A DNA stretch of 34,817 nt from Holophagae bacterium (GTDB taxonomy: Bacteria; Acidobacteriota; Thermoanaerobaculia; Multivoradales; Multivoraceae): assembly GCA_032128015.1 (NCBI GenBank), contig JAQBHE010000174.1, positions 1-34,817 on the forward strand, given 5' to 3'. Within the stretch, counting starts at the first letter, position 1. Each line of letters opens with the position of its first letter. The notes below the pieces were generated by a model. That model worked only from the letters and a program-made list of their open reading frames with translations. It had not been told where the DNA came from and searched no databases. Shown piece after piece: positions 7,251 to 28,046 of this stretch. A program made the translations under genes and the position numbers.

Positions 7251-7278
7251 GGCCGTTCTCCTCGTTTCTGCGGAGCCG

Positions 7279-11701: not shown

Positions 11702-11938
11702 ATGCGCACCGCCGGTATCCGGGAGGTCCGTCAGAATCTCTCGGCTCTCCTCCGCGAGGTCAAGAAGGGTCGAGAGATCGTCATCACCGACCGCGGCGAG
11801 CCGGTCGCACGCCTGGCACCGCCGGCCTTCAGCGCGGCGCGGCCGTTCCCCGATCTCGCCGCCTTTCGCCGCACACTGCCGCGTCTCGAGCCGCCGCTCT
11901 CGGCGGCCGTGATGGAGGATCGTGCCGACCGCCTCTGA
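11702..11938 (+). CDS. Type II antitoxin, Phd/YefM (prevent-host-death) type, partner of VapC.
   Basis: The N-terminus MRTAGIREVRQNLSALLREVKKGREIVITDRGEPVARL is the typical Phd/YefM fold signature. It overlaps the downstream PIN gene by 17 nt. Confidence 0.85.
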   Translation: MRTAGIREVRQNLSALLREVKKGREIVITDRGEPVARLAPPAFSAARPFPDLAAFRRTLPRLEPPLSAAVMEDRADRL

Positions 11939-12401
11939 CGAGCGGGAGAGCGCGGCGCTTGTCGGTCCGCTCTACTGCGACGCCAGCGCCCTCGCCAAGC
12001 TGTTTCTCCCGGAGGAAGGAAGCGAGGATCTCAATAGCCGTATCGCTGGGCGCGACGATCTGCTGGTCTCGGATCTAGCGGTGACGGAGGTTGCGTCGGC
12101 GCTCGCCCGGCGCAGCCGTGAAGGCTCGTTACCCGCCGCCGCTTCCCGCCGCGTCCACCGCAGAATCCTCGCGACGTTGGCAGAGGGAGCCTTCCGCCGC
12201 CTCGACCTCCTCGGCTCGACTCACCGCGACGCCGAACGGCTGCTGCTCGTCAGCGAGCGCGTCGCGCTGCGTGCCGCCGATGCCCTCCATCTCGCCCTCG
12301 CTCTCGGCGTCGGCGCCGGCACGTTGCTCACCTACGACCGCACGATGGCGCGCATCGCGCAGGCCCAGGGCCTCGCTGTCTATCCGGAGGTCGCGACCTG
12401 A
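11922..12401 (+). CDS. vapC: PIN-domain ribonuclease toxin VapC.
   Basis: The conserved acidic residues are in the expected context: LYCDASALAKLF (first Asp), VTEVASAL (Glu), RAADALHLALAL (Asp) and LLTYDRTMA (C-terminal Asp). Confidence 0.85.
   Translation: MPTASDERESAALVGPLYCDASALAKLFLPEEGSEDLNSRIAGRDDLLVSDLAVTEVASALARRSREGSLPAAASRRVHRRILATLAEGAFRRLDLLGSTHRDAERLLLVSERVALRAADALHLALALGVGAGTLLTYDRTMARIAQAQGLAVYPEVAT
11990..12024 (+). repeat. Repeat R2, copy A: 35 nt inside the vapC 5' region, 34/35 identical to 30689..30723.
   Basis: The sequence cctcgccaagctgtttctcccggaggaAggaagcg here compares with ...ggaggaCggaagcg at 30689. Confidence 0.85.
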
Positions 12402-12530: not shown

Positions 12531-12569
12531 GACGGCTAGCCGAGGACGCCCTCGTGCCGGGATGGGGAT

Positions 12570-12599
12570 GGACCAAAATATCGGCCTATTATCTGGTCC
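12570..12599. promoter_or_regulatory. AT-rich inverted repeat containing a TATTAT -10-like box, just upstream of the Phd/YefM start. Candidate promoter/operator.
   Basis: The sequence is GGACCA-aaatatcggcctattatc-TGGTCC. It is followed by GGAGG (12602-12606) and the TTG start at 12616. Confidence 0.3.
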
Positions 12600-12615
12600 T
12601 TGGAGGAACTCTCCC

Positions 12616-12894
12616 TTGTCTACCGTTCCGCTGTCCCAGGCCAAGACTCATCTCGCCAGGCTGCTCGCCGAAGTCGAGGCAGTAGGCGAACCCGTCGTGA
12701 TCACCCGCTCCGGACGCCCGGCCGGCGTGTTGGTGTCCGTGAGCGAGTACGAGGGGTTGCTCGAGACGCTGGAGGTCCTGGCCGATCGCGAGCTGTCCCA
12801 GGCGATCGAGAGGGGCCTGGCGGAAGCGACAGCCGGCGAACTACTGGGTCACGACGAGGTCTGGGATGGCCTGGACACTTCAGTACCCGACTAG
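12616..12894 (+). CDS. Type II antitoxin, Phd/YefM family.
   Basis: The sequence reads (M)STVPLSQAKTHLARLLAEVEAVGEPVVITRSGRPAGVLVSVSEYEGLLETLE. The TTG start has GGAGG 9 nt upstream, and the tracked ORF's upstream 18 codons are probably not translated. Confidence 0.8.
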   Translation: MSTVPLSQAKTHLARLLAEVEAVGEPVVITRSGRPAGVLVSVSEYEGLLETLEVLADRELSQAIERGLAEATAGELLGHDEVWDGLDTSVPD

Positions 12895-13141
12895 CGCCGC
12901 GCGAGCCATTCGCAGGCTCGATCCCGCCATCCGCCGCCGCGTCCTGGCCGCCGTCGAGAAGCTGGCCGCGGAGCCCGAGCACGGGAAAGCTCTGCAGCTG
13001 ACGCTCAAGGGCCTTCGGTCGTGGCGGACCGGTGACTTCCGAATCGTCTATCGCGTGGTCGAGAGCCGGCTGGAGATTCTCGTTGTCGCCCTCGGCCATC
13101 GCCGCGAGGTGTACGAGAGGCTGCGCGAGCGCCTCGAGTAG
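12866..13141 (+). CDS. Type II toxin, RelE/ParE family.
   Basis: The 91-aa sequence ...AIRRLDPAIRRRVLAAVEKLAAEPEHGKAL...LRSWRTGDFRIVYRVVESRLEILVVALGHRREVY is a classic RelE/ParE pattern. It overlaps the antitoxin 3' end. Confidence 0.85.
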   Translation: MAWTLQYPTSAARAIRRLDPAIRRRVLAAVEKLAAEPEHGKALQLTLKGLRSWRTGDFRIVYRVVESRLEILVVALGHRREVYERLRERLE

Positions 13142-13503: not shown

Positions 13504-14565
13504 ATGGAAGCCCGGCAAGCCGTGACGACGTTGGGTGCGTGCCGATTGTCGACGCGGATCAGCGTTGTGATCCCCGCCCATGACGCCGCCGCGAGCTTGC
13601 CGGCGGTGCTACGGGCGCTCGTTCCCCAGGCTGGCGAGGCCGAGGTCGTGGTCGTCGATGCGGGTTCCGCCGATGCCACCGCCGCGGCCGCGGCCGCCGG
13701 CGGCGTATCGGTGCTGAGGCTCGATGGCCGCCGTGGACCCGCCGAGGCCAGAAACGCCGGGGCGCTCGCGAGTGCTGGCGACGTGGTGCTGTTCCTGGAT
13801 GCCGACTGCGTGCCTCACCCTGACCTCATAGAGCGAGTGCGGTCGTCGTTCGACGGCGACCGGGGGCTGGTCAGCCTGTGTGGCTCGTACGACGACGACC
13901 CCCTGCCCGGCTTCTTCACCCGCTACATGAACCTGCGCCACCACTACTTCCACCAAACCGCTCGAACCGACTGCGCCACGTTCTGGGCCGGCTGCGGCGC
14001 GGTTCGCAGAGAAGACTTCTTGGCGGTCGGCGGCTTCGACGAGCGACGCTACCCGCTGCCGATGATCGAGGATCTCGAGCTCGGGCTGCGTCTTAGGGCT
14101 TGCGGGTCCACTCGTCTGGATCCCGACTTGCGAGTGCGGCACCTGAAACGTTGGACGCTTCGCGGAGTGCTCGAAGCGGACATCGTGAGGCGGGCGCTGC
14201 CATGGACCGCGTTGATCTTCGAGACCGGCCACCTTTCGGACGACCTCAACCTGCGCTGGTCGCAGCGGCTCGCCGCGCTGTTAGCACCGCTGGTGCTCGC
14301 GAGTCCGCTGATCGTGACGTGGGCTCTCGTCTCCGCCAACCCCGTTGTGCTCGCGGTGCTGGTGCCGTTGCTCGCCCTCTCGTTGTGGTCTCAGGCCGGT
14401 CTCGTCAGACTGTTCGCGAGGGTCGGCGGCTGGCGACTGGCGCTGCCGGCGTTCGCGTTTCACCAGGTGCACCACCTCTGCTGCCTTGGAGCGTTCGGTT
14501 GGGGCGCGGGACGTCACCTCCTGCGCCGGGCGGTTCGGGGAACTCGCCGATGGGTGGCGCCGTGA
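13504..14565 (+). CDS. Family 2 glycosyltransferase with a C-terminal membrane-helix region.
   Basis: GT2 segments seen are ISVVIPAHDAAASL, VVVVDAGSADAT, ARNAGA, the DxD region LFLDADC, and GCGAVRREDFLAVGGFDE...IEDLELGLRL. The last ~120 aa contain several hydrophobic helices (LAALLAPLVLASPLIVTWALV..., VVLAVLVPLLALSLW...). I chose the ATG at 13504. Confidence 0.85.
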   Translation: MEARQAVTTLGACRLSTRISVVIPAHDAAASLPAVLRALVPQAGEAEVVVVDAGSADATAAAAAAGGVSVLRLDGRRGPAEARNAGALASAGDVVLFLDADCVPHPDLIERVRSSFDGDRGLVSLCGSYDDDPLPGFFTRYMNLRHHYFHQTARTDCATFWAGCGAVRREDFLAVGGFDERRYPLPMIEDLELGLRLRACGSTRLDPDLRVRHLKRWTLRGVLEADIVRRALPWTALIFETGHLSDDLNLRWSQRLAALLAPLVLASPLIVTWALVSANPVVLAVLVPLLALSLWSQAGLVRLFARVGGWRLALPAFAFHQVHHLCCLGAFGWGAGRHLLRRAVRGTRRWVAP

Positions 14566-14611: not shown

Positions 14612-15682
14612 TCATCGCGCTGCGGCCAAGAGTTGGACGCGGTTGGCGAAGTAGGTCGACCATTGCTCGCGTCGATTGCGCCGCCAGGCCTCCGGGCGCC
14701 GTTCGAGCGGCACGACCTCGTAGTCGTAGTCCCTCAATGCCTGGCCGAGGTGACGGTTGACGAGGGCGATCTCGTAGGGTGTGATCTCGGACCGCCAGTC
14801 CTCGAGCGGCGTGTGATCGATGCCCGAGAAGCGTCTTCCAGACGTGCTGTTGCCGGTCCACGGTTGGCCGAGAAGAGTCGGCTCGAGGCGGATGTCGGCG
14901 CCTGCGATCCCGAGAAAGGCGGCGAGCTCGGCGAGCACCGAGGTCGGATCGCTCACCAGGGTCTCGTAGCGAACGACTCGGTAGCATTCGCCGAGGTTCC
15001 GCCGGTTGACGGCGGCCAGTTCGTAGGACGATCGCAGCTCCCGGAGGGATGGGCGCAGCGAAGGATAGCGAGGCGTGCGGCCGACCAGGTGGTCGCCGGT
15101 CGCGACTCGTCTTAGCGCGCGCAGGGTCGCATAGGGGTTGCGGACGACGTGGAGGAAGCGGGCGTTCGGGAACCACTCCCGCAACAGCGGCGCGTACTCC
15201 TCTTGGTGCGGCGACTTCTCGACCCATCTCCGGGTCGCGAGGTCACCGCTCGCTTGACCGGTGGCGGCGAGCAGCGCCTCGAAGAAGCGCCGATAGATCT
15301 CGCGATGGGACCGCAGCGCCGGGGGGGCGAGGACGGTGTGTACGAAGACCTCGGGGTCCAGCGGCGAGAAGTCGTGAGGAGGGTCGACGCGGATCCGGCG
15401 TTCGAGCCGCGCCAGTCGCTCGGGGTCTCGCACCTGGAGGAAGAACAGCTGGTCGAGCATCGCCTCGGCGATCGCCGGCGGTTCGACGAGTCGGCCGAGC
15501 TTGCGGAACCCAAGCCGGCTCGGGTGATCCGAGAAGCGGAAGACGTTGAGCTCGGAGGGCATCACCAGGAGCTCGGGGTGGCCGTCGAGCAGGGCCTGGA
15601 GCAGGGTGGTCCCTGACTTGGCGCAACCGACGATGAACACCGGTCCTGTCGCGGGCGACGACCACGGGTCGCGGTCGGTCAT
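14612..15682 (-). CDS. Sulfotransferase family protein (PAPS-dependent type).
   Basis: A 5'-PSB-like loop VFIVGCAKSGTTLL sits near the N-terminus, with RNPYATL (3'-PB-like) further on. The start overlaps the upstream methyltransferase stop (ATGA at 15679-15682). Confidence 0.8.
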   Translation of the reverse strand: MTDRDPWSSPATGPVFIVGCAKSGTTLLQALLDGHPELLVMPSELNVFRFSDHPSRLGFRKLGRLVEPPAIAEAMLDQLFFLQVRDPERLARLERRIRVDPPHDFSPLDPEVFVHTVLAPPALRSHREIYRRFFEALLAATGQASGDLATRRWVEKSPHQEEYAPLLREWFPNARFLHVVRNPYATLRALRRVATGDHLVGRTPRYPSLRPSLRELRSSYELAAVNRRNLGECYRVVRYETLVSDPTSVLAELAAFLGIAGADIRLEPTLLGQPWTGNSTSGRRFSGIDHTPLEDWRSEITPYEIALVNRHLGQALRDYDYEVVPLERRPEAWRRNRREQWSTYFANRVQLLAAAR

Positions 15683-16527
15683 GACGACGATCCGGATGTC
15701 CTCTCGAACAGCGCCAGGAAATGGTCGCCCCAGCGGTTGACCGGTGCTGTGCCTGCGAGGCGGACCTCGAGGCGCGCCGCCAGGCGGAAGACCCGCGGCC
15801 AGCGGTCAACCCAGTGGGACAGGTAGCTCGGGGGCACAAGCACGCCGAGAGCGACGGTTCGACGAAGCCGGAATCCCGGCATCAAGTCGCTGGCCAGTCG
15901 GCGAGGGTTCGGGTAGTCGACGCGAAACGCGGGCCCCCCCGCGATCTCGGCGGTGACGCTCGAAGCGAGACGCCGGAAGCCTCGACGCAGGTCTCCGCGG
16001 ATCGCGTGAGAGCAGATCTCCCACGGGCACCAGCGGCCCATGACCACCACGGCCAGGGGAGCGCCCGCCGGGAGCCGGGACGCGAGCGCGCGCGCCAACG
16101 CCGGACGATCCGACAGACAGTTGAAGACGCCGAAGTTGGACAGGGCGCCGGTGATGTGTCCAACGGCGTTGGGCACGACGTTGTCGAGCGCGGTCTCGGC
16201 CTTGTCCAGATCCATTGGCAGGCAGCGAACAGACTCCGAGTGGCCGGCGCGCGCGAGTTTGCTTCGGGCTTGCTCGACCATCGCGACCGAGCGATCGACA
16301 GCAGTGACCTCGAGGCCCTTGCCGGCCAACCACAGCGCGTCCTCGCCGGTCCCGCAACCAAGGTCCAGGATGTGGCCGGGACGACAGAAGACGGGATCGA
16401 GCAGAGAGTGAACTCGAGCCCGGAGCCACCGGCCGAGAGCGGTGTGGCTGAACCGTGTGTCGTAGTCGGTTGCGGCGCGGTCGAATGGAGCTTCGCGCTC
16501 GTCGCTCGCGCTTGGGCTTGCGATCAG
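15679..16527 (-). CDS. Class I SAM-dependent methyltransferase with an uncertain 5' end and no canonical start upstream of motif I.
   Basis: Motif I ILDLGCGTGEDALWLAGKG and the preceding FDRAATDYDTRF...GRWLR region lie upstream of the first canonical start codon (TTG 16329) but in the same open frame. The only plausible initiator after the upstream gene's stop is the CTG at 16527, overlapping that stop as CTGA. Confidence 0.7.
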   Translation of the reverse strand: MIASPSASDEREAPFDRAATDYDTRFSHTALGRWLRARVHSLLDPVFCRPGHILDLGCGTGEDALWLAGKGLEVTAVDRSVAMVEQARSKLARAGHSESVRCLPMDLDKAETALDNVVPNAVGHITGALSNFGVFNCLSDRPALARALASRLPAGAPLAVVVMGRWCPWEICSHAIRGDLRRGFRRLASSVTAEIAGGPAFRVDYPNPRRLASDLMPGFRLRRTVALGVLVPPSYLSHWVDRWPRVFRLAARLEVRLAGTAPVNRWGDHFLALFERTSGSSS

Positions 16528-16994
16528 GGGCAGGTTGAAAAGGCCCGGGTATCTTGGATTGGCTGGAAGGGCGTGTTCAGCGGGTTCTGGTAGCCGCGCG
16601 GGACTCCGGTCTCGGTGTCGATGACCGACATCTCCACGCGGACGTCCGTCAGACCGCCTGCGAACACCCAGAAGGCGTTGTTGATCGAGCAGGCGTTGAG
16701 CACTTTGATCACCATTTCGACGTTGTTCTTGTCAAAGAACCAGAAGTATCCGGTGTCCCCGGTCAGCGCGACCGCCTGTCCTTGGCCGGCCCCGCCCTGG
16801 GAGGACCACAGCGTGCGAACCTGGAACCGACCGTCGCTCAGGCACAGCGTCGTCTTGTCCGCGACGCACTTGTCGTAGCTTTGAGCGAACAGCTGCCAGT
16901 GGAATGGCGCTGAGTCGAGGGACAGAAACGGCAGCGCCACGCTGCCCGCGAGGCACAGCAGCAGGGCGACGATAGAGCGGTAGGCCAAGCGCAT
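16524..16994 (-). CDS. Small secreted protein carrying a conserved Cys-containing domain of unknown function.
   Basis: It has a signal peptide MRLAYRSIVALLLCLAGSVALPFLS (alternative GTG start at 17060). The domain reads LCLSDGRFQVRTLW...TGYFWFFDKNNVEMVIKVLNACSINNAFWVFAGGLTDVRV...FQPIQDTRAFSTCP and is paralogous to 2482..2688. Confidence 0.75.
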   Translation of the reverse strand: MRLAYRSIVALLLCLAGSVALPFLSLDSAPFHWQLFAQSYDKCVADKTTLCLSDGRFQVRTLWSSQGGAGQGQAVALTGDTGYFWFFDKNNVEMVIKVLNACSINNAFWVFAGGLTDVRVEMSVIDTETGVPRGYQNPLNTPFQPIQDTRAFSTCP

Positions 16995-17064
16995 GGGGAG
17001 AGCTTCTTGGAGTGATCGGCCTCGAGGGCTGCTGGCGAGCCGTTTTGAGAACGCTAGCACAAAG

Positions 17065-18561
17065 TCAAGGTCCCTGGTCCGCGGGCCCCTGCCCCGCGGG
17101 CCGCTCGATAGAGGCTCGCCGCACCACGCGAAACAGAGGGCCGTCGGCGACGACCTCGAGCGCGGGCGTTCCGAGCGTCGGCGCGTCCAGGTAAACCGGT
17201 CGCCGCTCGACCTCGACCTCGAGAAAAGGCCAGAGATTCTCGTCCGAGATCAAGAACCGGTTGATCGTCCGCACGTCGGCGCGCTGGTGCTCGACGAGCT
17301 GCAAGTACTCGACGACCGGGGCCGTTGCCCAGCCCGCGCACAGCAGGGCGTTCGGCTCCATGAACCGGAGCACTCTCTCGCCACGGTGGCGCGCGCTCCA
17401 GTCGTTGGACAGATCGACCCCGCCGCCGCGCAGCCCTGCCCACACGACTCCAGCGAGTACCAGCCCACGCACCAACGCGAGAGCTGAGCCGACCCAGCGC
17501 TCGTTCGATTCCTCACGGATCCAATCGAACAGCGTTTGGTAGCCAACGCCTAACCACACCGCCCAGATCAAGTAGCTGGGCAGGAACATCGTGCTCTTGT
17601 CGATGACCCGGTAGGAGGCGAAGAACGCGGTGTGCGCGCCGAACATCAGCAGTAGCGCCCCGCCGAAATCGGGGCGCCGTCGCGTCAGTACGAACGCGCC
17701 GAGGAGCCCGGGGCCGATGCCGATCGCCGCGAACGCACGCCACAGCTCGACCAGGAACCTTCCCAGCTGAACGAGCAGACCGCTGGCGTCGTACCCCCCA
17801 AAGTCGCTCGCGAAGCGCTGCCCCGAAGCCAGCCACCACATTCCGGATAGGGTCGAAAGATCGATCCGCTGGAAGCGACCCCCGGCGTTGTACTCGCCGA
17901 CGTAGTCGAACGCCGGCGCGGAGTGCTGGAGCAGGGTTAGATAGAAGTAGAGGGCCAGGCCGCCGACCACCGGCAGAAGCGCCAGCGCCAGATGGCGCCA
18001 ACGCCGCGAGCGCCGCTGTCGAGCGAGTACCCAGAGCACTCCGGGCGCCCACAACACCGTTGCCAGATGATGGGCCAAACCCAACCCCAGGCAAGTGCCG
18101 ACCAGGGTGAGGTGGCGTTCCCGTGGGTGCTCTAGCCAGTGGAGCAGGGACCACATGAAGGCGCACTGGATGAGTGTTTGGGGCGTGTAGACCTCGGCGA
18201 TCAGGGACAGTGCCCAGAAGAAGTGGGAGACCGCGAGCAGTCCGACGGCGCCCGCCCGCGCCCACGGACCGACGCCGAGCTTGGCGAGCAGGCGCTCGAG
18301 CACGACCAGGGTCAGAGCGCCACAGAGCGCGCTCAGCAGGTTCATTCGATAACCGACGTCGCCGATCGGCAGTCTCGACCAAAAGCGTCCGACCAGCAGG
18401 TAGAGCGGATAGCCGGTCGAACGCACCAAGCCGCCGGTGTACGACGCGGTGGTGAGCTCGGCGCTGTCGAGGTTGTAGACGGTCGGCGCCAGAGTGGTGA
18501 TGTAGAGCGCGAGGGACAGGGCGAGCACCAAGAGCGGCGCGGTCAGGGTCGTTGGCCTCAC
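17065..18561 (-). CDS. DUF2723 family membrane protein (GT-C fold, PMT/TMEM260-like glycosyltransferase).
   Basis: The N-terminal signature is LYITTLAPTVYNLDSAELTTASYTGGLVRSTGYPLYLLVGRFWSRLP...YRMNLLSAL. About 10 or more hydrophobic helices follow, then a soluble C-terminal ~120 aa. Confidence 0.8.
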   Translation of the reverse strand: MRPTTLTAPLLVLALSLALYITTLAPTVYNLDSAELTTASYTGGLVRSTGYPLYLLVGRFWSRLPIGDVGYRMNLLSALCGALTLVVLERLLAKLGVGPWARAGAVGLLAVSHFFWALSLIAEVYTPQTLIQCAFMWSLLHWLEHPRERHLTLVGTCLGLGLAHHLATVLWAPGVLWVLARQRRSRRWRHLALALLPVVGGLALYFYLTLLQHSAPAFDYVGEYNAGGRFQRIDLSTLSGMWWLASGQRFASDFGGYDASGLLVQLGRFLVELWRAFAAIGIGPGLLGAFVLTRRRPDFGGALLLMFGAHTAFFASYRVIDKSTMFLPSYLIWAVWLGVGYQTLFDWIREESNERWVGSALALVRGLVLAGVVWAGLRGGGVDLSNDWSARHRGERVLRFMEPNALLCAGWATAPVVEYLQLVEHQRADVRTINRFLISDENLWPFLEVEVERRPVYLDAPTLGTPALEVVADGPLFRVVRRASIERPAGQGPADQGP

Positions 18562-18571
18562 CGAGTTGGCC

Positions 18572-20374
18572 TCACGGGGTCCGCACCAGAGATCGGAACT
18601 CCTCAGCGGTCGGACCGGTGACGGGCGCGAAGCTGAGAAAGCGGAGGCCGGCTACCGTGGTGTCTGCGAACAGAGCCAGATCCCGGGTGCGCGCCGCCGC
18701 GATCCAAGGCTCGAGCTCCTCGAGGCTCGGCGCCCGGGTCACGACCCTGAATCTCTCGACGGCACCACCCCGGAGCCTCAACCAGTCGGCGAGCCGCGCC
18801 GGCTCCGCCACCGCGAACATCGGTTGCTCGACGAAGGTGGTGGCGAGCGAGCTTGGCAGCCAATAGAGGTCGGTGACGGTCAGGGCACCGCTCTTCGCCA
18901 ATTCTTCGCGGTACTGCAGGAGGTCACCCTTTGCCGAACGCAGCTCGCGCCAGCCGCGGAGCTCGAACAGCGCGCCGAGGGTGACGGCAGCGACCATGAG
19001 CCCGAGGAGCAGGTGGCGGTATCCCTGGCCGTCGCCGGACCCGAGCTCTTCGACGAAGAGCAGCGCGCCGACGATACCCAGTGGATAGAGCACCAGGAGG
19101 TAGCGGTTACCCCACTCCATCCCGCCGAAGAGGAGGGGCAGCGAGGCTACGGTGCCGAGCCCCAGCGTCGCCAGGGTCGTCGTGGCAAGCAGCCGTCGAT
19201 TCGCGACCGGGTCGCGAAGCCCCCGGAGCGCGTACGGCACGCTCAGTAGCATGAGAGGAACGGGGAGAAACAACGCGTGCACGACCCGAAAGCGGATCGG
19301 TGAGCTGACCGTCCAGGCGAGCGCGGCCAGGATCGGCAGAAGCCCGACCAGCGCCAGCCGTAGCCGCCAGCGACCGCGGCAGACCGCGGCGGCGGCAGCC
19401 AAGGCGATGCCGCCTGCCGCGGCCGCCGCGAGGGGCCGCGGCAGCGGCGGAGTGCCCGGCAGCGGGGCGCCGACGAAGATCGCGATCAGCCGTTCGTCGA
19501 TGCGTGACCAGAAGTGGCGAGAGCCGAACAGGTCGAGCATGGTGCCGGCCAGCATCCGTTCGGTCGCGGTCATCGAATCGATGAGGACGCCGAGCTCGGG
19601 CGAGCCGTGGCCGAGAGCCAGAACGAGTACGACGATGGCGAGGGCAAGCGCTAACCGACGACGGCGCCTGGGTGAAGGCGCAGGCCCCGCGGTGACCCAG
19701 GGCCGTCGCGCCCACGCCGTGGCGGCGATCAAGGCCGAACCGAAGAGCACCATCTCGTGACGCAACAGCACGGCGATCACCAGCAGGATTACGGCGAGTC
19801 CGTCGCGTCGCCGATCAGGCGGCCGCAGCACCAGCGCGAGGGCGCCAAGGCCGCTGGCCACGGCGGCGGTGTGCTCCCAGAACACCAGCCCGTAGAACAG
19901 CACCGGGCTGGCGAACGCGGTGATGATCGTCGCCGCCTGGCAGATCCCCTCCCTGGCCCCGACCCGACGGGCGATCGAGCCGGCGAGGGCGGCGGTCGCG
20001 AGCGCCGCGAGCCAAGGGATGACCGTCAGACCCCGTAGTCCCATCAGTTGGTAGAACGGTCGCGACAACAACGGGAATGCTGAGCTCCAGTTGAAGTCGA
20101 CACCACCTCCCGGTCGTGGTTGGGGGTAGGTCAAGCTGATTTCGTGGAATGGATGCTCGCGGGCGAGACGGCGGGGGTAGAAGTCGTACATCGGGTCGAG
20201 CAAGCGACCGGGATAGACGACTTCGGCCTCGAGCCCGTGGTTCCACGAGAAGGCGGTCATCTGGAGAAACTTGGAGCCCTCGTCGGGCGACCAGAAAACC
20301 TGCGGGGGCAACGACAACGAGAGTGCGAGATAGAGGCTCGCGATCAGCGCGAGGATGGCGGCGCGGCGGTGCAT
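18572..20374 (-). CDS. Large polytopic membrane protein, putative GT-C-type (ArnT/PMT-like) glycosyltransferase. Family not recognised.
   Basis: The 600-aa ORF is extremely hydrophobic with many helices. An acidic motif lies in the first extracytoplasmic segment (FWSPDEGSKF) and the C-terminal ~130 aa are soluble. It sits 10 nt upstream of the DUF2723 gene on the same strand. Confidence 0.55.
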   Translation of the reverse strand: MHRRAAILALIASLYLALSLSLPPQVFWSPDEGSKFLQMTAFSWNHGLEAEVVYPGRLLDPMYDFYPRRLAREHPFHEISLTYPQPRPGGGVDFNWSSAFPLLSRPFYQLMGLRGLTVIPWLAALATAALAGSIARRVGAREGICQAATIITAFASPVLFYGLVFWEHTAAVASGLGALALVLRPPDRRRDGLAVILLVIAVLLRHEMVLFGSALIAATAWARRPWVTAGPAPSPRRRRRLALALAIVVLVLALGHGSPELGVLIDSMTATERMLAGTMLDLFGSRHFWSRIDERLIAIFVGAPLPGTPPLPRPLAAAAAGGIALAAAAAVCRGRWRLRLALVGLLPILAALAWTVSSPIRFRVVHALFLPVPLMLLSVPYALRGLRDPVANRRLLATTTLATLGLGTVASLPLLFGGMEWGNRYLLVLYPLGIVGALLFVEELGSGDGQGYRHLLLGLMVAAVTLGALFELRGWRELRSAKGDLLQYREELAKSGALTVTDLYWLPSSLATTFVEQPMFAVAEPARLADWLRLRGGAVERFRVVTRAPSLEELEPWIAAARTRDLALFADTTVAGLRFLSFAPVTGPTAEEFRSLVRTP

Positions 20375-20388
20375 CAGCGTGGCCCGGC

Positions 20389-21399
20389 TCAGACCGCGGC
20401 GGATTCACGGCTCGGCCCGTCGGTCGGGAACTCGTCGATCGGGAACAGGGCGGCGAGCCGCCGGCAATAGGCCTCCTCGATCGTGCGCCGGTGACCGTGC
20501 TGGTGTCCCTTGCAGACTTCCGGGCCAAGCTCGACTTCGGCTGCCGGGCCGGTCGAGCTCGAGATCTCGAGGATCTTGCGCCGGCGGATGATCGATTCCA
20601 GGCGATCGCCGAGACCGCCGCCGAGCAGGCGCTCGAGAAGGGCCGATCCGCCCGCATCCGGGATGTTGGCGTCGTACCCTGGAGGCGGTCCCGCCGCGTT
20701 GGGTAACCAGGCTTCCAGCCACGAGTTCTCGTCGCGCAGGCGCGCATAGGTGGTCCCGCCGGCCACCGGCACCATTTGCGCCAGCTCACGCGCTTCGTAC
20801 AAGGAGCCCAGGTGCGAATCGGCGGCGAGCTGGAGCGCGAGCTCGCTGACCAGGTAGTTCGGGCACAGTTTGACTCCGCGCAGACGCGCCAATCGCACCA
20901 GCTGGACGACGAACAGTCGGGCGATCCAGACCCGTCCGTGGCGGCAGACGATCAGCAAGTCGATGTCGTCGCTGTCGGCGGCCTGGCCGAGCGCGAGCGC
21001 GCCGGTGACCGCCACCATCTTGACGAAGGGGACCCGGGAGATCGCGGTCGCATACCGCCGCGCCCTCGGCCATCGCGCGGCGGCCAGGCGGGCGCGCCGT
21101 CGCTGGATGGCGCCGACATCCCGGCGGTCTGCGAGACCGAAGCGGCCCCCGTGATCCGACACCCTGGCGTGCTCGACGAGGCGCGCGACGGCGACCGCCA
21201 CCGCTGTCTGCGGGGCACGGACCGCGTCGAGGAAGCGGTGGATCTCGGTGACCGAGAGCGGGTGGTCGAAGAGATCGGAATACGCGAGGGGTGCGCAGGA
21301 TCGCCCGGTCCAGCCGCTGTTCTGTGTCAGACTCGAAGTCGGGAATGCCTTGCTGGTGAGGCTGGTGACGGGCGAGCATCGCATCTCCGTCTGCCACAA
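20389..21399 (-). CDS. Nucleotidyltransferase-fold (Pol-beta superfamily-like) protein of unknown function.
   Basis: The segment VTGALALGQAADSDDIDLLIV fits the G[SA]...DxD minimal nucleotidyltransferase motif. The tracked start at 21399 is TTG, and an ATG at 21384 is an alternative. It ends 14 nt before the membrane protein gene. Confidence 0.6.
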   Translation of the reverse strand: MWQTEMRCSPVTSLTSKAFPTSSLTQNSGWTGRSCAPLAYSDLFDHPLSVTEIHRFLDAVRAPQTAVAVAVARLVEHARVSDHGGRFGLADRRDVGAIQRRRARLAAARWPRARRYATAISRVPFVKMVAVTGALALGQAADSDDIDLLIVCRHGRVWIARLFVVQLVRLARLRGVKLCPNYLVSELALQLAADSHLGSLYEARELAQMVPVAGGTTYARLRDENSWLEAWLPNAAGPPPGYDANIPDAGGSALLERLLGGGLGDRLESIIRRRKILEISSSTGPAAEVELGPEVCKGHQHGHRRTIEEAYCRRLAALFPIDEFPTDGPSRESAAV

Positions 21400-21484
21400 C
21401 GGTTTGACGAGGCGAGCGTGGTATTACCCATCATACTCTCGAGATCCCCTTGAGCCGGCGGCGGGGCTCCCCGGCGAGCAAGCG

Positions 21485-22747
21485 GTGACGATCGAGGGTA
21501 GTGTTCGCGCGGTTCCGCTGCGGATCGGCGTCGACTTGACCGCGCTGCTGCCGGAACCGACCGGAGTCGACCGCTACCTTCACTCTCTGGTCGATGCGCT
21601 TGCCGTGGTCGGAAGTGGCGAAAGGTTCGTCCTGTTCGTCAATCGCGAGGACCTCGAGACCTTTCGCAACCACCCGCTCGCAGACCGAGTGGTCTCGTGG
21701 TCGCGCCGGCCGCGGGCATCGAGGCTGTTTTTTCACCAGCTGCTGCTGCCGATGCTGGCGGTTTGGCACCGGCTCGATGTCCTCCATTCCCCCTCCTTTT
21801 TGCTGCCGCTGGCCGCGCGCAGGGTCGCCCAGGTGTTGACGGTCTACGACATGACCTCTTTCACCCACCCCGAGTGCCATATCCCACTGCGCCGAAGCGC
21901 GCCCTATCGCTTCGGCGTGCGCCGGAGCATTGCGCGGGCCGACCTCGTTACCGTGCCGTCAGGCAGCGCCAAGGAGGACCTTGTGCGCCTCTTTCCGGCG
22001 GTTTCCCCGGCCAAGATCCGGGTGGTGCGACCGGGGATCTCGGAGAGCTTCCGGCCCGTGGAGAACGGTGTGATCGTCGAGACCTTGGAGCGCCTCGGTC
22101 TGCCGCGAGGTTACTTGTTGTTCTTGGGCACGCTCGAACCGAGAAAGAATGTGAGCCGACTGCTCGAGGCCTACAAGTCGCTCGCGCGGACCGGAGATTT
22201 GCTCGAGGACCTGGTACTGGTCGGCCGGCACGGTTGGGGGTGCTCTGACCTGGTCGAAATGGTGCGCCGCTATGGCCTGGGCGATCGGGTTCATCTGACG
22301 GGCTACGTCGACTCGGCCGACCTTCCTGCGCTCCTCTCCGGAGCCCGCGCCCTGGTCTACCCATCGTTGCATGAGGGGTTCGGATTCCCGCCGCTCGAAG
22401 CGATGGCCTGCGCGACCCCGGTGGTCGCGAGCCGCAACAGCGCGATGATCGAGAATCTCGAGGGCGCGGCGCTGCTGGTCGACCCACTGGACGTCGAGGA
22501 ACTACGCGGGGCGATTCACCGCGTCCTGCGCGACCAGCGCCTCCGGGACGAGTTGGTCGTCGCCGGTCGGGAGCGCGCTCGGCGCTTCTGCTGGGGGGAG
22601 ACCGCGCGCCTGACCCTCGCCTGCTACCGCGAGGCGACCCTCACGTCCGACCGCGAGACCGCGTCCCCGTCCCGGTCTCCGCACCTTGGCTCGCCGGGCC
22701 GGAATCGGGGCTTGGCCCTGAATCCGCGCTCGCGGGAAAATCGATGA
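21485..22747 (+). CDS. Family 4 (GT-B fold) glycosyltransferase.
   Basis: The N-terminus is LRIGVDLTALLPEPTGVDRY, followed by YLLFLGTLEPRKN and the EX7E region PSLHEGFGFPPLEAMACATPVVAS. I chose the GTG at 21485 because the upstream part of the tracked ORF overlaps the divergent gene. The stop overlaps the next start (ATGA at 22744-22747). Confidence 0.85.
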   Translation: MTIEGSVRAVPLRIGVDLTALLPEPTGVDRYLHSLVDALAVVGSGERFVLFVNREDLETFRNHPLADRVVSWSRRPRASRLFFHQLLLPMLAVWHRLDVLHSPSFLLPLAARRVAQVLTVYDMTSFTHPECHIPLRRSAPYRFGVRRSIARADLVTVPSGSAKEDLVRLFPAVSPAKIRVVRPGISESFRPVENGVIVETLERLGLPRGYLLFLGTLEPRKNVSRLLEAYKSLARTGDLLEDLVLVGRHGWGCSDLVEMVRRYGLGDRVHLTGYVDSADLPALLSGARALVYPSLHEGFGFPPLEAMACATPVVASRNSAMIENLEGAALLVDPLDVEELRGAIHRVLRDQRLRDELVVAGRERARRFCWGETARLTLACYREATLTSDRETASPSRSPHLGSPGRNRGLALNPRSRENR

Positions 22748-24303
22748 GCACGCGGCGAACCGGCAAGGCCAAGGTTCTTCTGGGCCAGGCCTACTCGTTG
22801 CGTCTCGATCCCAAGCTGCGACAGGCGATGCAGCCGTATCCGCCGCTGGCGACGTTATACGCGGCCAGTGTGCTGCGTGCTCATGGCTGGGAAGTGGCGC
22901 TGTTCGACGCCACGCTCGCCGAGTCCTCGTTCGCGTGGAGCGAAGCGTTGGAGCGGAACCTGCCGGAGGTCGTCGTTCTCTACGAGGACAGCTTCAACTA
23001 TCTCTCCAAGATGTGTCTGTCACGGATCCGGGAAGAGGCGCTGTCGATGATCGCGGCAGCGCGGCGGACGGCAGGCGTGGTGATTGTCGCTTCCTCGGAC
23101 GCCAGCGACTGCCCCGACCTTTATCTCGAAGGGGGGGCCGATTACGTCCTCGTCGGCGAGGCCGAGGAGTCGCTGGTCGAGCTCCTCGCGAGACTCGAGG
23201 CGGGGAAACTGGGGGAGGGCGACACGATCGCCGGGGTCGTCGGCCGTCGCGGCCAGCCGGTGGTGCGCCGGCCGCCGATCTCCGACCTCGACTCCCTGCC
23301 ACTGCCGGCCTGGGACCTGGTCGATGTCGATCGCTACCGGCACGCCTGGAGGGCGCGACACGGCCTCTTCTCGCTCAACATGGTGACTACCCGAGGCTGC
23401 CCGTACCACTGCAACTGGTGCGCCAAACCGATCTGGGGTCAGCGCTACCACAGTCGTTCGCCGGAGAACGTCGTGCTCGAGATGCAGCGACTCGCGGAGC
23501 GTTACGCCCCGGACCATCTCTGGTTCATGGACGACATCTTCGGGCTGCGCCCCGGTTGGATTGGCGAGCTCGCCGATCGGCTGGAGAGTTGCGGCTTGCG
23601 ACTGCCGTTCAAGTGCTTGTCCCGCCCCGATCTGTTGCTACGCGCGGGCGAGGTCGATGCCTTGGCCCGGGCCGGCTGCGAGAACGTGTGGATGGGCGCG
23701 GAATCGGGGTCGCAGCGGATCCTCGACGCCATGGAGAAGGGCACCACGGTCGAACAGATCCGGCAGGCTTCGACGCGGCTCCGCGCGGCGGGAATCCAAG
23801 TCGGTCTGTTCTTGCAGTTCGGTTACCCCGGCGAGACCCGGGAGGACATCGAGCGGACCTTCTCGCTGGTCAGGGAGGTTTTGCCCAACGACATCGGGGT
23901 GTCGGTCTCCTACCCCCTTCCGGGAACCAAGTTCCACGAGCGGGTGCGCGAGGAGCTCCTAGAGAAGGACCACTGGGTGGACTCGGCAGACCTCGACATG
24001 ATGTATCAGGGTCCGTTCGTCTCCGATTTCTACCGGCAGTTGCACCGGGTTCTCCACCTCGAGTTTCGCGCGCGGCGGTCCGCCGCGACGTTGCTGGCGA
24101 GCTTGCGGAGCCCGCGCCGTCTGCGTCCAAGACACCTGGGCGCCGCGGCGCGCGCTGCGGTCAGCCTGTTGCGTTTGCCGGTCGAGCGACGAAGGCTCGA
24201 TCACCTCGGACTCGCGGCTCCGCGTCCTACCAGGATCCCCGGGCCGGAGCTCAGTGCCGCCGAGGCCAGCCGGCCGACGCCGCAACCGATAGAGCAGCGA
24301 TGA
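22744..24303 (+). CDS. B12-binding-domain radical SAM enzyme (class B), copy 1.
   Basis: The N-terminal Rossmann-like B12 domain reads YPPLATLYAASVLRAHGWEVALFD...VVLYEDSF...IVASSDASDCP. The CxxxCxxC motif RGCPYHCNWC has Cys codons at 23398, 23410 and 23419. It also has GCENVWMGAESGSQRILDAMEKG. Confidence 0.9.
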   Translation: MSTRRTGKAKVLLGQAYSLRLDPKLRQAMQPYPPLATLYAASVLRAHGWEVALFDATLAESSFAWSEALERNLPEVVVLYEDSFNYLSKMCLSRIREEALSMIAAARRTAGVVIVASSDASDCPDLYLEGGADYVLVGEAEESLVELLARLEAGKLGEGDTIAGVVGRRGQPVVRRPPISDLDSLPLPAWDLVDVDRYRHAWRARHGLFSLNMVTTRGCPYHCNWCAKPIWGQRYHSRSPENVVLEMQRLAERYAPDHLWFMDDIFGLRPGWIGELADRLESCGLRLPFKCLSRPDLLLRAGEVDALARAGCENVWMGAESGSQRILDAMEKGTTVEQIRQASTRLRAAGIQVGLFLQFGYPGETREDIERTFSLVREVLPNDIGVSVSYPLPGTKFHERVREELLEKDHWVDSADLDMMYQGPFVSDFYRQLHRVLHLEFRARRSAATLLASLRSPRRLRPRHLGAAARAAVSLLRLPVERRRLDHLGLAAPRPTRIPGPELSAAEASRPTPQPIEQR

Positions 24304-25772
24304 ATCGACTCGCATCCGAACGCCCCGACCTGCTGCTCGCTCACGGCTACTGCCTGGTCGAGGATGAGCTCGAGCGGCGGATCATGAAGCCGTACCCACC
24401 CCTGGGATTGCTCTACCTCTCGTCGCACCTCAAGCGCGCCGGGATGTCGGTCGAGGTGTTCGATTCGACCTTCCGGTCGCGGTCGGAGTTCGAGCAGGTG
24501 CTCGAGGCAAGACGACCTCGGGTGGTCGGGCTCTCCGCCAACCTGATGACCAAGTTCAACGTCTTGAGAATGATCGAGCAGTGCCGTCGTGCCGGGATCC
24601 CGACCATCCTCGGTGGGCCGGAGCCCGCGCAATACGCCCAAGAGTACCTGGACTTCGGCGTCGATGTCGTGGTGGTGGGCGAGGGCGAGTTGACGCTCGA
24701 AGAGATCGTGCCACGGCTGAGCGCGGGCGGCGCCGCGAGTGTCGCCGGGACTCCCGGAGTGATCGTCGCCGATGGCCTGGGCGGGCTGGTGAACGGTGGT
24801 CCCCGGAAGCTGATCGGCGATCTCTCCGGCCAGCCCTGGCCCGACCGCGAGGCGATCGATTGCGACCGCTACCTCGAGGTGTGGAAGCGCCACCATGGCA
24901 AGGGCTCCCTGTCGCTGATCACCGCGCGTGGGTGTCCGTACACCTGTGCCTGGTGCAGCCATTCGGTCTACGGACGAAGCTACCGGCGACGGGCGGCGTC
25001 GGATGTCGCCGACGAGATCCAGTGGCTCCTGGGTCGCTACGCTCCCGATCAGCTGTGGTTCGCCGACGATGTCTTCACCTTGGATCGTCGTTTCATCCTC
25101 GAGCTTGCTGGCGAGCTCGAACGACGCGCGATCCGCATTCCCTTCGAATGCATCAGTCGCGCCGACCGGATCGATCCGGAGGTGGTCGAGGCGCTGGTCG
25201 GGCTCGGGTGCTGGCGACTGTGGATCGGGTCCGAGAGCGGGTCCCAGCGCATCCTCGACCGAATGCAGCGGCGGACTGCTGTCGAAGACGTTCGAGCGAA
25301 GGCCCGCCTGCTCCAGGCCGCCGGAATCGAGGTCGGGATGTTCATCATGCTCGGCTACGACGGCGAGGAGGCCTCCGATATCGCGGCGACCATCGAGCAT
25401 CTCAAAGCCTGCGCGCCCGATGTCTATCTGACGACCGTTGCCTATCCGATCAAAGGCACTTCCTACTACGACGAGGTTGCCGGCGCGATCCGCACCGATC
25501 GCCCGTGGGCGCAGCGTACCGATCGCGATCTGCGGATCGAGGGTCGCCATTCGGCGCGCTACTACCACAACGCGGTGCGTTGGATCGAGGGCAGCGTCGC
25601 CCTGCACCGGGCGAGTCAGAGCGGGCGGCTCCCTTCCATCGAGCGGCTCCAATCCTGGCTGAAGACGATGCACGGGCGGATCGGGATGAGGCTCGCGCGC
25701 GCAGAAACCGAGGTCGGGAAGGCGAGTGGCCGGGGCTGGCGGCCGGCGGACCGAACAGGTGTGGGATGGTGA
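24300..25772 (+). CDS. B12-binding-domain radical SAM enzyme (class B), copy 2, clearly paralogous to copy 1.
   Basis: Family segments are YPPLGLLYLSSHLKRAGMSVEVFD and ILGGPEP. The motif RGCPYTCAWC has Cys codons at 24933, 24945 and 24954. It also has GCWRLWIGSESGSQRILDRMQR. The ATG overlaps the copy 1 stop (ATGA at 24300-24303). Confidence 0.9.
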   Translation: MNRLASERPDLLLAHGYCLVEDELERRIMKPYPPLGLLYLSSHLKRAGMSVEVFDSTFRSRSEFEQVLEARRPRVVGLSANLMTKFNVLRMIEQCRRAGIPTILGGPEPAQYAQEYLDFGVDVVVVGEGELTLEEIVPRLSAGGAASVAGTPGVIVADGLGGLVNGGPRKLIGDLSGQPWPDREAIDCDRYLEVWKRHHGKGSLSLITARGCPYTCAWCSHSVYGRSYRRRAASDVADEIQWLLGRYAPDQLWFADDVFTLDRRFILELAGELERRAIRIPFECISRADRIDPEVVEALVGLGCWRLWIGSESGSQRILDRMQRRTAVEDVRAKARLLQAAGIEVGMFIMLGYDGEEASDIAATIEHLKACAPDVYLTTVAYPIKGTSYYDEVAGAIRTDRPWAQRTDRDLRIEGRHSARYYHNAVRWIEGSVALHRASQSGRLPSIERLQSWLKTMHGRIGMRLARAETEVGKASGRGWRPADRTGVGW

Positions 25773-25793
25773 GCGATGGGATGGTGAGCCGAT
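25763..25793 (+). repeat. Tandem duplication (15 + 16 nt) at the junction of radical SAM copies 2 and 3.
   Basis: GGGATGGTGAGCGAT is followed by GGGATGGTGAGCCGAT. The first copy holds the copy 2 stop (25770-25772) and the second ends at the copy 3 ATG (25792). Confidence 0.6.
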
Positions 25794-27291: not shown

Positions 27292-27350
27292 ACGAGGGTT
27301 GGGACCCAGCAGGCTCGGGGGTCGGGTTGAGGCTTCCTGTCATCGAAGCG

Positions 27351-28046
27351 CTACCTCTCGGCGCTCAGCCGGTAGATCGTGATGAACTCGCTCACCAGGT
27401 TGGCGCGGTGGACAGCCGCGGTCTCGAGCCCGGCATCTCGGAAGCTCCTGAGGAACCCCGTTTCGTCTCCGTCCGAGGACAGCAGCACGAAGCCTCGGCC
27501 GTGGTCGACGAGGTGCTGTTGGAGTCCGGCCGCGAAGCGGTCCCGGATATCTGTGGCGAAGAAGGCCCGCTCGGTCATGGTGGTCGGCTCGCGACGGAAG
27601 TAAGGCGGGCTGAACAGGACGACCTCGAACCGCTCGCCCGACACTGGCTCATAGAGGTCGCCGTGGCGTACGTCCATCCGGTGCTCGACGCGGTTGAGCA
27701 GCGCGTTGACGCGCGCGCAACGAACCGCGTCCTTGCTGATGTCGGTGGCGACCACCCGCTGGCAGACCGTGGCGAGGCGGGTCGCGAGGATCCCTGAACC
27801 GGTGCCGATCTCGAGCGCCGTGGCGCCCGCGGCCTCGAGTGCCCGGAGCTCCCCGTTTGGATGCAGCTCTCGCTCAATCCAGCGGAGAAAAACGGGTGTC
27901 GTTCGATAGAGCGCTGGGTGAAAGACGCCGGGTAGGACCACCAGCTTGAGTCCGCCGAAGTTCTCGAGCACCACACGCTTTGCGCGTTGCCGCTGGAACA
28001 GCACGTAGCGCGCGGTCAGCAACGTGCGCCAGAGCAGTCGCTTCAA
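27351..28046 (-). CDS. Class I SAM methyltransferase, HemK/PrmC-like small-domain type.
   Basis: Motif I is ALEIGTGSGILATRLA, followed by VVATDIS. Motif IV is the variant FSPPY (an NPPY-type motif). PGVFHP lies upstream. Confidence 0.8.
   Translation of the reverse strand: MKRLLWRTLLTARYVLFQRQRAKRVVLENFGGLKLVVLPGVFHPALYRTTPVFLRWIERELHPNGELRALEAAGATALEIGTGSGILATRLATVCQRVVATDISKDAVRCARVNALLNRVEHRMDVRHGDLYEPVSGERFEVVLFSPPYFRREPTTMTERAFFATDIRDRFAAGLQQHLVDHGRGFVLLSSDGDETGFLRSFRDAGLETAAVHRANLVSEFITIYRLSAER

Follow-up and report, generated by a model that had tools for sequence, protein, structure and literature searches.

Two unrelated GT-C-type glycosyltransferases and a tag-bearing exported protein form a conserved gene module in a Holophagae bacterium

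We analyzed a 34,817-nucleotide stretch of DNA from a Holophagae bacterium (Acidobacteriota, Thermoanaerobaculia; GenBank assembly GCA_032128015.1, contig JAQBHE010000174.1), referred to here as the window, and focused on a run of six minus-strand genes at positions 14612-21399. A first-pass annotation of the same DNA had read this run as one dedicated extracytoplasmic glycosylation system. Here, we describe a conserved module that consists of an LA_3751-like GT-C glycosyltransferase, a TMEM260-like GT-C glycosyltransferase, and an exported protein defined by a short N-terminal tag. Judged by comparison with related loci, the six-gene run is a mosaic, in which this three-gene cassette (16524-20374) sits within a GT4/B12-radical-SAM cluster.

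The first gene of the cassette (18572-20374, minus strand) encodes a 600-amino-acid (aa) polytopic membrane protein with about 10-11 hydrophobic segments. A Pfam scan of this protein gave no match. Its AlphaFold2 (AF2) model (pLDDT 75, pTM 0.80) is a helical bundle, and a Foldseek search placed ArnT (E = 4e-6), AglB (E = 4.5e-5), STT3, ALG12, PglB, and AftA at the top with a probability of 1.0, at TM-scores against solved GT-C enzymes of just 0.35-0.47. The first-pass annotation had named a transporter as the other possible identity, and the fold search rules this out, as MFS and other transporters were found only at E > 0.08 and a probability below 0.3. The motif SPDEGxK immediately follows the first transmembrane (TM) segment, with D31 and G33 invariant in 9-10 homologs, and further conserved motifs are FWEH and GG.EWG.RYLL. 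The protein also matches NF047440 (LA_3751/LA_3752 putative glycosyltransferase) at E = 6e-38, over only profile positions 4-212 of 460. Because its score of 130.8 bits falls below the curated cutoff of 200 bits, the protein is a relative, not a member, of that family. By its modeled fold, it is a GT-C transferase, predicted to use a polyprenyl-phosphate-linked sugar donor at the outer face. The same enzyme family seems to have another use in locus L102 (1549-8803), where three tandem paralogs of the 600-aa GT-C (45-48% mutual identity) are flanked by FecR-domain genes and are found without a DUF2723 gene or a tag protein.

The second cassette gene (17065-18561, minus strand) encodes a 498-aa DUF2723 protein. 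This assignment was confirmed with PF11028, which it matches above the gathering score (E = 4e-24, 85.8 bits against a cutoff of 24.2); a match to PMT_2 was also seen. A search against human TMEM260 (PDB 9rql) gave E = 1e-13 with the single sequence and E = 1.5e-45 with a 13-ortholog profile, and the profile alignment covers TMEM260 residues 30-471 of 729, which form the TM core and the Rossmann-like domain. D32, within LDSAEL, aligns to TMEM260 D52 and is invariant in 13 orthologs. The Foldseek result for the 600-aa protein, together with the PF11028 and TMEM260 matches, upholds the earlier view that the run contains two GT-C-type transferases. The two were also considered as paralogs, and this was rejected, as BLASTP found no significant similarity between them (E = 0.08). 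TMEM260 is a sequon-directed protein O-mannosyltransferase (PMC10214176; 10.64898/2026.03.17.711096; 10.64898/2026.09.21.753134). Its target is a defined, extended peptide sequon within IPT domains, which it O-mannosylates, and its D52 is essential (PMC10214176; bioRxiv 10.64898/2026.03.17.711096). Published work mentions bacterial relatives of TMEM260 solely as "distant homologs" and gives no function for them (PMC10214176).

The third cassette gene encodes a small exported protein and runs, on the minus strand, either from a GTG (16524-17060, 178 aa) or from an ATG (16524-16994, 156 aa). The ATG at 16994 is supported as the better start because MRLAYRS opens both the database gene call, P0001, and P0037 of L001/L002, which at 66% identity was the sole close ortholog recovered over the full length. 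The 156-aa protein has a single N-terminal hydrophobic segment (residues 3-29), which is part of the tag. We first spotted the tag in loci L099 and L101, where a ~500-aa protein encoded upstream of the GT-C pair begins "...APFVSLTSERFGWQAFTQAYQ" and resembles "...LPFLSLDSAPFHWQLFAQSYDKC" of the window. The tag opens with basic residues, followed by a short hydrophobic helix in whose middle a small/polar pair is conserved (NG/GG/AG/SG), and then by the segment G-[LV]-S-Y-x-x-F-x-W-[QE]-x-F-[AT]-Q-x-Y. In the window, it spans 16875-16988 (minus strand), with the hydrophobic helix at 16908-16988 followed by F-H-W-Q-L-F-A-Q-S-Y at 16875-16904. None of the Pfam and NCBIfam models covers the tag.

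We searched for the tag, by regular expression and then by hidden Markov models (HMMs), in six-frame translations (19,152 peptides) of the window and of 102 loci, cited here by L numbers. The 600-aa family served as the seed of a genome scan that gave 80 loci from many phyla, and a DUF2723 gene adjoins the 600-aa homolog in L006, L007, L008, L009, L011, L015, L020, L027, L046, and L082 and also in L099/L100 and L101. The tag is restricted to genes adjoining pairs of the 600-aa and DUF2723 enzymes, save for one gene in L021. A tag gene adjoins the GT-C pair in 11 of the 12 assessable pair loci (8 sequence clades); L008 and L027 were left out of the 12, as their contigs end too near the pair to judge. 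The loci with tag and pair come from Thermoanaerobaculia, Chloroflexota, Binatia, a "Deltaproteobacteria" metagenome-assembled genome (MAG), and an unclassified MAG, at least three phylum-level lineages in all. Among 69 loci (1.1 Mb) with a 600-aa homolog and no detected DUF2723 gene, 68 contained no tag; the exception is L021, in which 6.7 kb separate a single tag gene from the 600-aa homolog and the contig runs out before any DUF2723 gene could appear. An HMM built from the window and L001 only gave its best non-self matches to L101 (E = 2e-5), L020 (1.4e-4), L099 (1.9e-4), L007 (5e-4), and L006 (0.012), against a best E of 0.44 for reversed-sequence decoys.

The tag gene lies downstream of the DUF2723 gene in the window (16524-16994), L001 (10001-10474), L006 (6322-7521), L011 (7970-8353), and L020 (13264-13962), between the two enzyme genes in L009 (9286-9645) and L046 (8407-9048), convergent with the DUF2723 gene in L015 (7891-8328), and upstream of the 600-aa gene in L007 (3154-4707), L099/L100, and L101 (7759-9243 in L099). 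The parts outside the tag are mutually unrelated. They comprise a C-terminal Cys domain in the window and L001, CarboxypepD_reg repeats in L006, and the bulk of a ~500-aa beta-rich protein in L007, L099/L100, and L101. An acidic double-disulfide repeat in L009, a Cys-rich part in L011, and a PT-rich, Cys-rich part in L015 are each joined to a C-terminal helix and Arg tail, and L020 has an IPTL-CTERM-like tail. The L046 protein carries a divergent form of the motif, ELWSTFNYGY. Several tag proteins are minimal, being a tag plus a C-terminal helix and Arg-rich tail, and the window protein has the same layout as a tag plus the Cys domain. The first-pass annotation had suggested that the secreted protein could be a dedicated acceptor of the transferases, or a carrier or chaperone, a view that the lack of its gene in orthologous operons would have undermined. 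The companion idea survives in altered form, with a tag-bearing gene beside 11 of 12 pairs; the Cys domain is not the conserved part, and the version that carries it is found only in the window and L001.

Two observations on other tag loci are added here. The small tag proteins of L009, L011, L015, and L020 add to the tag a stretch rich in Cys, then a hydrophobic helix and an Arg-rich tail at the C-terminus, a layout that resembles PEP-CTERM/IPTL-CTERM, e.g., "…APVLSTWGWMLGAALLLAIGFWSLQRRR"; such proteins would have sorting-type signals at both ends. In L099, a gene at 6629-7708 (minus strand), located 1.6 kb upstream of the pair, just beyond the tag gene and on the opposite strand, encodes a 359-aa protein with a weak match to Mannosyl_trans2 (PIG-V-like, also GT-C), which may be a third GT-C enzyme of that locus.

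The Cys domain of the window protein spans 114 aa (residues 43-156; 16527-16868, minus strand), has four Cys, and ends in ...TCP-COOH. Its pattern is …DTGYFWFF…NVE.V.KVL.AC…FWVFAGGLT.V…TVTDT.TG…F.PIQDT.AF.TCP, and hundreds of multi-domain proteins share ~60% identity with it over their final ~115 residues. An exhaustive profile search returned 10,405 representatives of 50%-identity clusters at E <= 1e-3 and 5,787 at E <= 1e-30. In most of the best matches, the domain is at or near the C-terminus of a protein of 300-1360 aa, usually as two matched stretches. It is almost always the end of the protein (...TCP), is often in tandem, and occurs with passenger domains such as M4 peptidase, subtilase, plastocyanin, VWA, PKD, PPC, Calx-beta, and FN3. 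Pfam and NCBIfam scans, including sorting-domain models, found no match (0 NCBIfam families at E <= 0.1; 0 Pfam), and PF27099, which is listed for two homologs, was not reproduced with the local Pfam library. The AF2 model is all-beta with a pLDDT of ~95 over the domain, yielding no match in a fold search against the PDB and BFVD; a sequence search of the PDB gave none either. The Cys domain may be an undescribed sorting or anchoring domain. A literature search for "GYFWFF" or "LA_3751" returned no paper, and nothing was found on a sorting domain in Thermoanaerobaculia.

We also considered the Cys domain as the conserved partner of the GT-Cs and rejected it, as tblastn against the 80 loci placed it beside the pair only in L001, in addition to the window. 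In L061, it is found 3 kb from a lone 600-aa homolog. All 10 metagenome loci that carry the domain lack a GT-C nearby, and L007 (Thermoanaerobaculales), which is among the closest loci of the genome scan and has a DUF2723 protein 53% identical to that of the window, has no Cys-domain gene downstream of DUF2723. Other copies of the domain were seen at L001 203-544 and at L086 1702-3875 (three copies). A window open reading frame (ORF) at 2083-2691 (plus strand) closes with a half-copy of the domain, of which only the C-terminal portion is present (…NVEMVVKVLNACSFGERFWAFAGGLTNV…FQPIQDTAAFDTCSASP), and may be a degenerate or frameshifted copy; the minus-strand ORFs that overlap it have no family matches.

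Next, we examined the six-gene run as a whole. An ORF check confirmed all six minus-strand ORFs in 14612-21399. A 336-aa nucleotidyltransferase (NTase)-like protein (20389-21399) is encoded ahead of the cassette, and the cassette is followed by genes for a class I S-adenosylmethionine (SAM) methyltransferase (15679-16527; ~282 aa with a probable CTG start) and a 356-aa 3'-phosphoadenosine-5'-phosphosulfate (PAPS)-type sulfotransferase (14612-15682). Divergent from the NTase-like gene are a GT4 gene and three B12-binding radical SAM (rSAM) genes (21248-27291, plus strand), identified by Pfam matches, and convergent on the sulfotransferase gene is a GT2 gene (13504-14565, plus strand, PF00535) whose product has a C-terminal hydrophobic tail. 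The junction lengths had been given correctly as 14 nt, then 10 nt, then 4 nt, the last of which widens to 70 nt with the ATG start at 16994, and the ATGA overlap of the methyltransferase and sulfotransferase genes was right as well; a second overlap, between the exported-protein and methyltransferase genes, holds only with a non-canonical start. A scan for promoter- and terminator-like sites inside the run found none above chance, and going by gene spacing only, we infer that the six genes are co-transcribed.

The run reads as a mosaic because the NTase-like and methyltransferase genes are conserved with the GT4/rSAM set, while the three cassette genes recur together in L001. There, the 600-aa, DUF2723, and small proteins are 45, 57, and 66% identical to those of the window, and the cassette is flanked by a GNAT gene and a Ser/Thr kinase gene. 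Elsewhere, the GT4/B12-radical-SAM cluster is found without GT-C genes. By tblastn against the 80 loci, the methyltransferase, sulfotransferase, NTase-like, and GT2 genes do not accompany GT-C pairs. The earlier proposal that the six genes make up one dedicated system is not supported, as the NTase-like and methyltransferase genes and, in one contig, the GT2 gene travel with the GT4/rSAM cluster and the L001 cassette lacks them; with regard to gene order, the three-gene cassette recurs in L001 and the triad with a tag gene recurs elsewhere, while the six-gene order does not. GC content at third codon positions (GC3) is uniform across the six genes (0.80-0.85), and neither flanking repeats around the cassette nor a plasmid match was found. 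Uniform GC3 and the lack of flanking repeats give no sign that DNA was acquired recently from a genome of different composition.

Most homologs of the NTase-like protein belong to Chloroflexota and one to Thermoanaerobaculales; they adjoin GT4, B12-rSAM, and methyltransferase genes in L093, L094, L096, and L098. The content of this cluster is a GT4, three or four B12-binding rSAM enzymes, and class I and MTS-type methyltransferases, with large Wzy_C proteins beside the NTase-like gene in the L094 and L096 versions. Using tblastn, we found that the window GT4, rSAM1-3, MTS-type methyltransferase, NTase-like protein, and 15679-16527 methyltransferase are orthologous to cluster members at 40-62% identity. 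The conserved cluster genes of the window are located at 21248-28046, 20389-21399, and 15679-16527, with counterparts in L093, L094, L096, and L098. Synteny is clear in L093, where rSAM3-rSAM2-rSAM1-GT4 is divergent from NTase-methyltransferase at 46-62% identity and the methyltransferase gene directly follows the NTase-like gene. The best NCBIfam match of the rSAM proteins is "lipid biosynthesis B12-binding/radical SAM protein."

The 336-aa protein has no Pfam or NCBIfam match. Support for the fold assigned to it earlier, that of a nucleotidyltransferase, is marginal: the signature TGALALGQAADSDDIDLL (pattern G[SA]-x(9-13)-D-x-D) has G133, D145, and D147 invariant, and matches to solved minimal NTases come no better than E = 0.14 with a single sequence and 0.11 with a profile. 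The methyltransferase is 41-45% identical to those of L093, L094, and L096. Its frame offers no ATG, GTG, or TTG until a TTG at 16329, by which point SAM motif I (ILDLGCGTG) has already been passed. No stop interrupts the frame as far back as 16527, and the CTG at that position shares bases with the TGA that ends the preceding gene (CTGA; 16524-16530, minus strand). A CTG start with translational coupling is likely, because alignments with homologs begin at "PFD.AA.DYD" and because the L093 ortholog starts with a TTG in a TTGA overlap with its own upstream gene. An NTGA overlap in both the window and L093 suggests that the coupling is conserved.

PF13469 confirms the sulfotransferase assignment (E = 2e-26, 93.9 bits against a cutoff of 27). 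This protein has the 5'-phosphosulfate-binding loop GCAKSGTT at residues 19-26, and among solved structures it is closest to the sulfotransferase domains of CurM/OLS and to TPST. In a tblastn search of all loci, the gene lies beside no related locus, with one match 7 kb away in L009. The GT2 (PF00535, E = 5e-24) is a generic one, with hydrophobic residues 255-301 and only a weak match to ArnC-type enzymes (~1e-4 to 1e-5). It had been proposed as the donor synthase for the GT-Cs. Its homolog instead goes with the NTase cluster in L098, where a GT2 with 47% identity is directly convergent on the NTase-like gene; a GT2 match near a GT-C gene was seen in only 1 of the 80 loci from the 600-aa scan (L074). 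No Pfam or NCBIfam match to a GtrA/SMR-type flippase was found among the scanned window ORFs, of which the small ones were not covered exhaustively. Upstream of the GT2 gene are a PIN-domain gene (11922-12401, plus strand; Pfam E = 1e-12) and two small overlapping ORFs (12562-12894 and 12866-13141, plus strand) that by eye resemble a Phd/YefM antitoxin and a RelE/ParE toxin.

We propose that the small protein is a dedicated Sec-exported partner of the enzymes and that its tag is the recognition or acceptor site of one or both GT-Cs, a reading to which we give about an even chance. In the mechanism we envisage, the N-terminal helix would place the conserved segment at the outer face of the cytoplasmic membrane, where the segment would serve as a dedicated recognition and acceptor site. 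One or both GT-Cs, possibly paired like Pmt1-Pmt2, would glycosylate the tag from a polyprenyl-phosphate sugar. The variable C-terminal part, which is the Cys domain here and, elsewhere, either beta-sandwich repeats or a hydrophobic helix that leads into an Arg-rich tail, would then carry the modified protein to the cell surface. The NTase-like protein, methyltransferase, sulfotransferase, and GT2 would at most shape the donor and would not modify the exported protein. We favor an acceptor role because TMEM260 is sequon-directed, GT-C active sites are at the outer face, and a constant tag with variable cargo is typical of tagged substrates. A more specific version, in which bacteria would have a so far undescribed, protein-specific glycosylation with FxW[QE]xF[AT]QxY as its sequon and both GT-Cs would act on the linked carrier at the outer face, is possible and rather doubtful. 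In that version, the linkage could be O-linked on a nearby Ser/Thr/Tyr or even C-linked on the invariant Trp. No description of this module of a GT-C pair and a tagged protein was found in the literature.

Several points weigh against an acceptor role for the tag, and many of them fit an alternative in which the tagged protein belongs, as an adaptor or membrane-anchored subunit, to a GT-C complex whose true acceptor is a lipid-linked or cell-envelope glycan. In such a complex, the helix would pack on the enzymes, with the juxtamembrane aromatic segment at the interface, and the C-terminal part would tether or target the complex or its product. TMEM260 H67 is replaced by R47 in the alignment of the window DUF2723 protein. 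The catalytic base D441 corresponds to A412 (17326-17328, minus strand) in the window and to Gly in L001, in a loop alignment that is possibly shifted; most other DUF2723 orthologs have D/E at W+1 or W+2 after an invariant Trp, near the D441 position. The peptide-recruiting TPR domain of TMEM260 is also missing at the C-terminus, since there is no TPR Pfam match, the protein ends at 498, and the TMEM260 alignment stops at 471. The conserved small/polar pair within the hydrophobic helix raises the possibility that the helix could be that of a retained membrane subunit and not a leader. Among 62 neighbors around other pairs, Bac_transf (x4), Wzx (Polysacc_synt; x3-5), Wzy_C (x3), and WecG (x2), along with GT4, are the commonest, and such Wzx/Wzy-type polysaccharide genes occur in ~4 of 10 pair loci, which fits a glycan acceptor too. 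Most characterized bacterial GT-Cs act on glycans or lipids, as do ArnT, AftA, and Emb, all of which rank with the top fold matches. Furthermore, L082 has a pair with no detected tag gene, all pair loci were collected by 600-aa seeding alone, and the acceptor residue and sugar donor of the candidate tag substrate are putative. The missing TPR, the non-acidic D441 position in the window and L001, and the enrichment of Wzx/Wzy-type neighbors keep the subunit explanation alive. We nevertheless consider it unlikely, as the non-tag part ranges from 119 to 518 aa with unrelated folds, more like tagged cargo than a fixed subunit, several tag proteins are no more than a tag and a C-terminal sorting-type signal, and the nearest characterized DUF2723 relative is a protein-specific O-mannosyltransferase (PMC10214176).

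The other explanations take in the genes around the cassette. If all six genes and the GT2 as donor synthase were one system, as first annotated, the Cys domain would be glycosylated and the glycan then methylated and sulfated. Co-directional genes with 4-70 nt gaps or overlaps, two GT-C membrane proteins, and a GT2 with a C-terminal hydrophobic tail speak for this, but the comparative data largely refute it, and we regard it as very improbable. Conservation ties the NTase-like, methyltransferase, and GT2 genes to a GT4/B12-rSAM cluster with no GT-C genes, all three are absent from the L001 cassette, and the sulfotransferase gene is conserved beside neither module. The cosubstrates PAPS and SAM occur in the cytoplasm. 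The methyltransferase, the sulfotransferase, and the NTase-like protein contain no signal peptide, TM segment, or other hydrophobic segment, which suggests that they are cytoplasmic; as such, they could not modify an already exported protein. The Cys domain, for its part, is generic: more than 10,000 clusters contain it, none of 10 metagenome loci that carry it has a GT-C next to it, and among pair loci it is present in one clade. Neither its proposed role as acceptor, nor that of the methyltransferase and sulfotransferase as its tailoring enzymes, nor that of the GT2 as donor synthase is supported. Distinctly unlikely as well, in our judgment, is recruitment of the cassette for a function in the cluster, whereby the cluster would make an unusual lipid-linked sugar or glycan, C-methylated by the rSAM enzymes, O-methylated, and sulfated, and the GT-C pair of this lineage would transfer it at the outer face onto the tagged protein. 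The pair would then fill the role that Wzy_C (O-antigen-ligase/PglL-like) proteins may hold in Chloroflexota clusters. In line with this, the NTase-like and methyltransferase genes, which adjoin in L093, are separated here by precisely the cassette, the junctions are tight and an NTGA start/stop overlap has been re-created at the methyltransferase gene, GC3 is uniform over the six genes, and Wzy_C genes occur beside the NTase-like gene in L094 and L096 and not among the window ORFs scanned. Against it, the combination is a single example, L001 has the cassette without the cluster, and L093 has neither Wzy_C nor GT-C within 17 kb.

The proposed tag-directed module has parallels in several known systems. 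In Pmt1-Pmt2 and POMT1-POMT2, two different GT-Cs are required together and use polyprenyl-phosphate mannose to modify exported proteins on the luminal or outer side of the membrane. The module likewise has two different GT-Cs and an exported protein; unlike Pmt1 and Pmt2, the window GT-Cs are not detectable paralogs (BLASTP E = 0.08) and have no MIR domains, and a complex is only a possibility here. In Pseudomonas aeruginosa, TfpW (a GT-C arabinosyltransferase) or PilO/TfpO is encoded beside the pilin. This is likewise an outer-face membrane transferase encoded beside the single protein it modifies, but the enzyme families differ, the window protein is no pilin and has no prepilin G/FTLIE leader, there are two GT-Cs, and the tag is N-terminal and juxtamembrane. 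Exoproteins can also carry C-terminal sorting modules, such as the type IX secretion system C-terminal domain (T9SS CTD), PEP-CTERM, and IPTL-CTERM. Like these, the Cys domain forms the very end of many secreted enzymes and adhesin-like proteins that are otherwise unrelated, and other tag proteins have a hydrophobic helix and Arg-rich tail, as in PEP-CTERM/IPTL-CTERM, at its place. It differs in being a 114-aa domain with four conserved Cys, often in tandem, with no fold or model match, and its sorting role is putative.

The closest parallel to the 498-aa protein, TMEM260, shares PF11028 and the D52-equivalent Asp, the profile match extends over its TM core and Rossmann-like domain, and its extended peptide sequon parallels the conserved linear tag. 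The window protein differs in having no TPR, Ala at the D441 position, and Arg at the H67 position, and in being partnered with a second, unrelated GT-C. Its candidate acceptor is a juxtamembrane N-terminal segment and not an IPT beta-strand. Separately, we note that the window and L001, both with a non-acidic D441 position, are the same two loci in which the Cys domain forms part of the tag protein. Gtr-type systems have three components, a GT2 polyprenyl-phosphate-sugar synthase, a flippase, and a GT-C, and add sugars extracytoplasmically (PMC11127046). A GT-C with a membrane-tailed GT2 nearby is also found in the window, but a GtrA-type flippase was not found among the scanned ORFs, conservation links the GT2 to the other cluster, and the third conserved component is an exported protein instead of a synthase or flippase; known Gtr-type systems modify glycans, not proteins. 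The composition of the module differs from each of these systems in its two unrelated GT-Cs, its lack of a flippase or co-conserved synthase, and its linked exported protein with a linear N-terminal tag.

The gene triad offers the bacterial relatives of TMEM260 a concrete candidate substrate in the form of a short linear tag, and it is plausible that the module is a new bacterial protein-glycosylation pathway. The mosaic structure also cautions against automated operon-based function prediction, as a tidy "operon" can be two unrelated modules spliced together. If the proposal is true, it would add a route of protein glycosylation in Acidobacteriota, Chloroflexota, Binatia, and others, would show how a GT-C can recognize a peptide without a TPR domain, and would provide a first functional handle on a very large family of C-terminal domains of environmental exoproteins. 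Should the sequon version also be true, the Cys-domain family of more than 10,000 clusters would be a new sorting or anchoring domain of exoproteins, and the system would be a prokaryotic counterpart, possibly a forerunner, of domain-specific O-mannosylation in metazoans.

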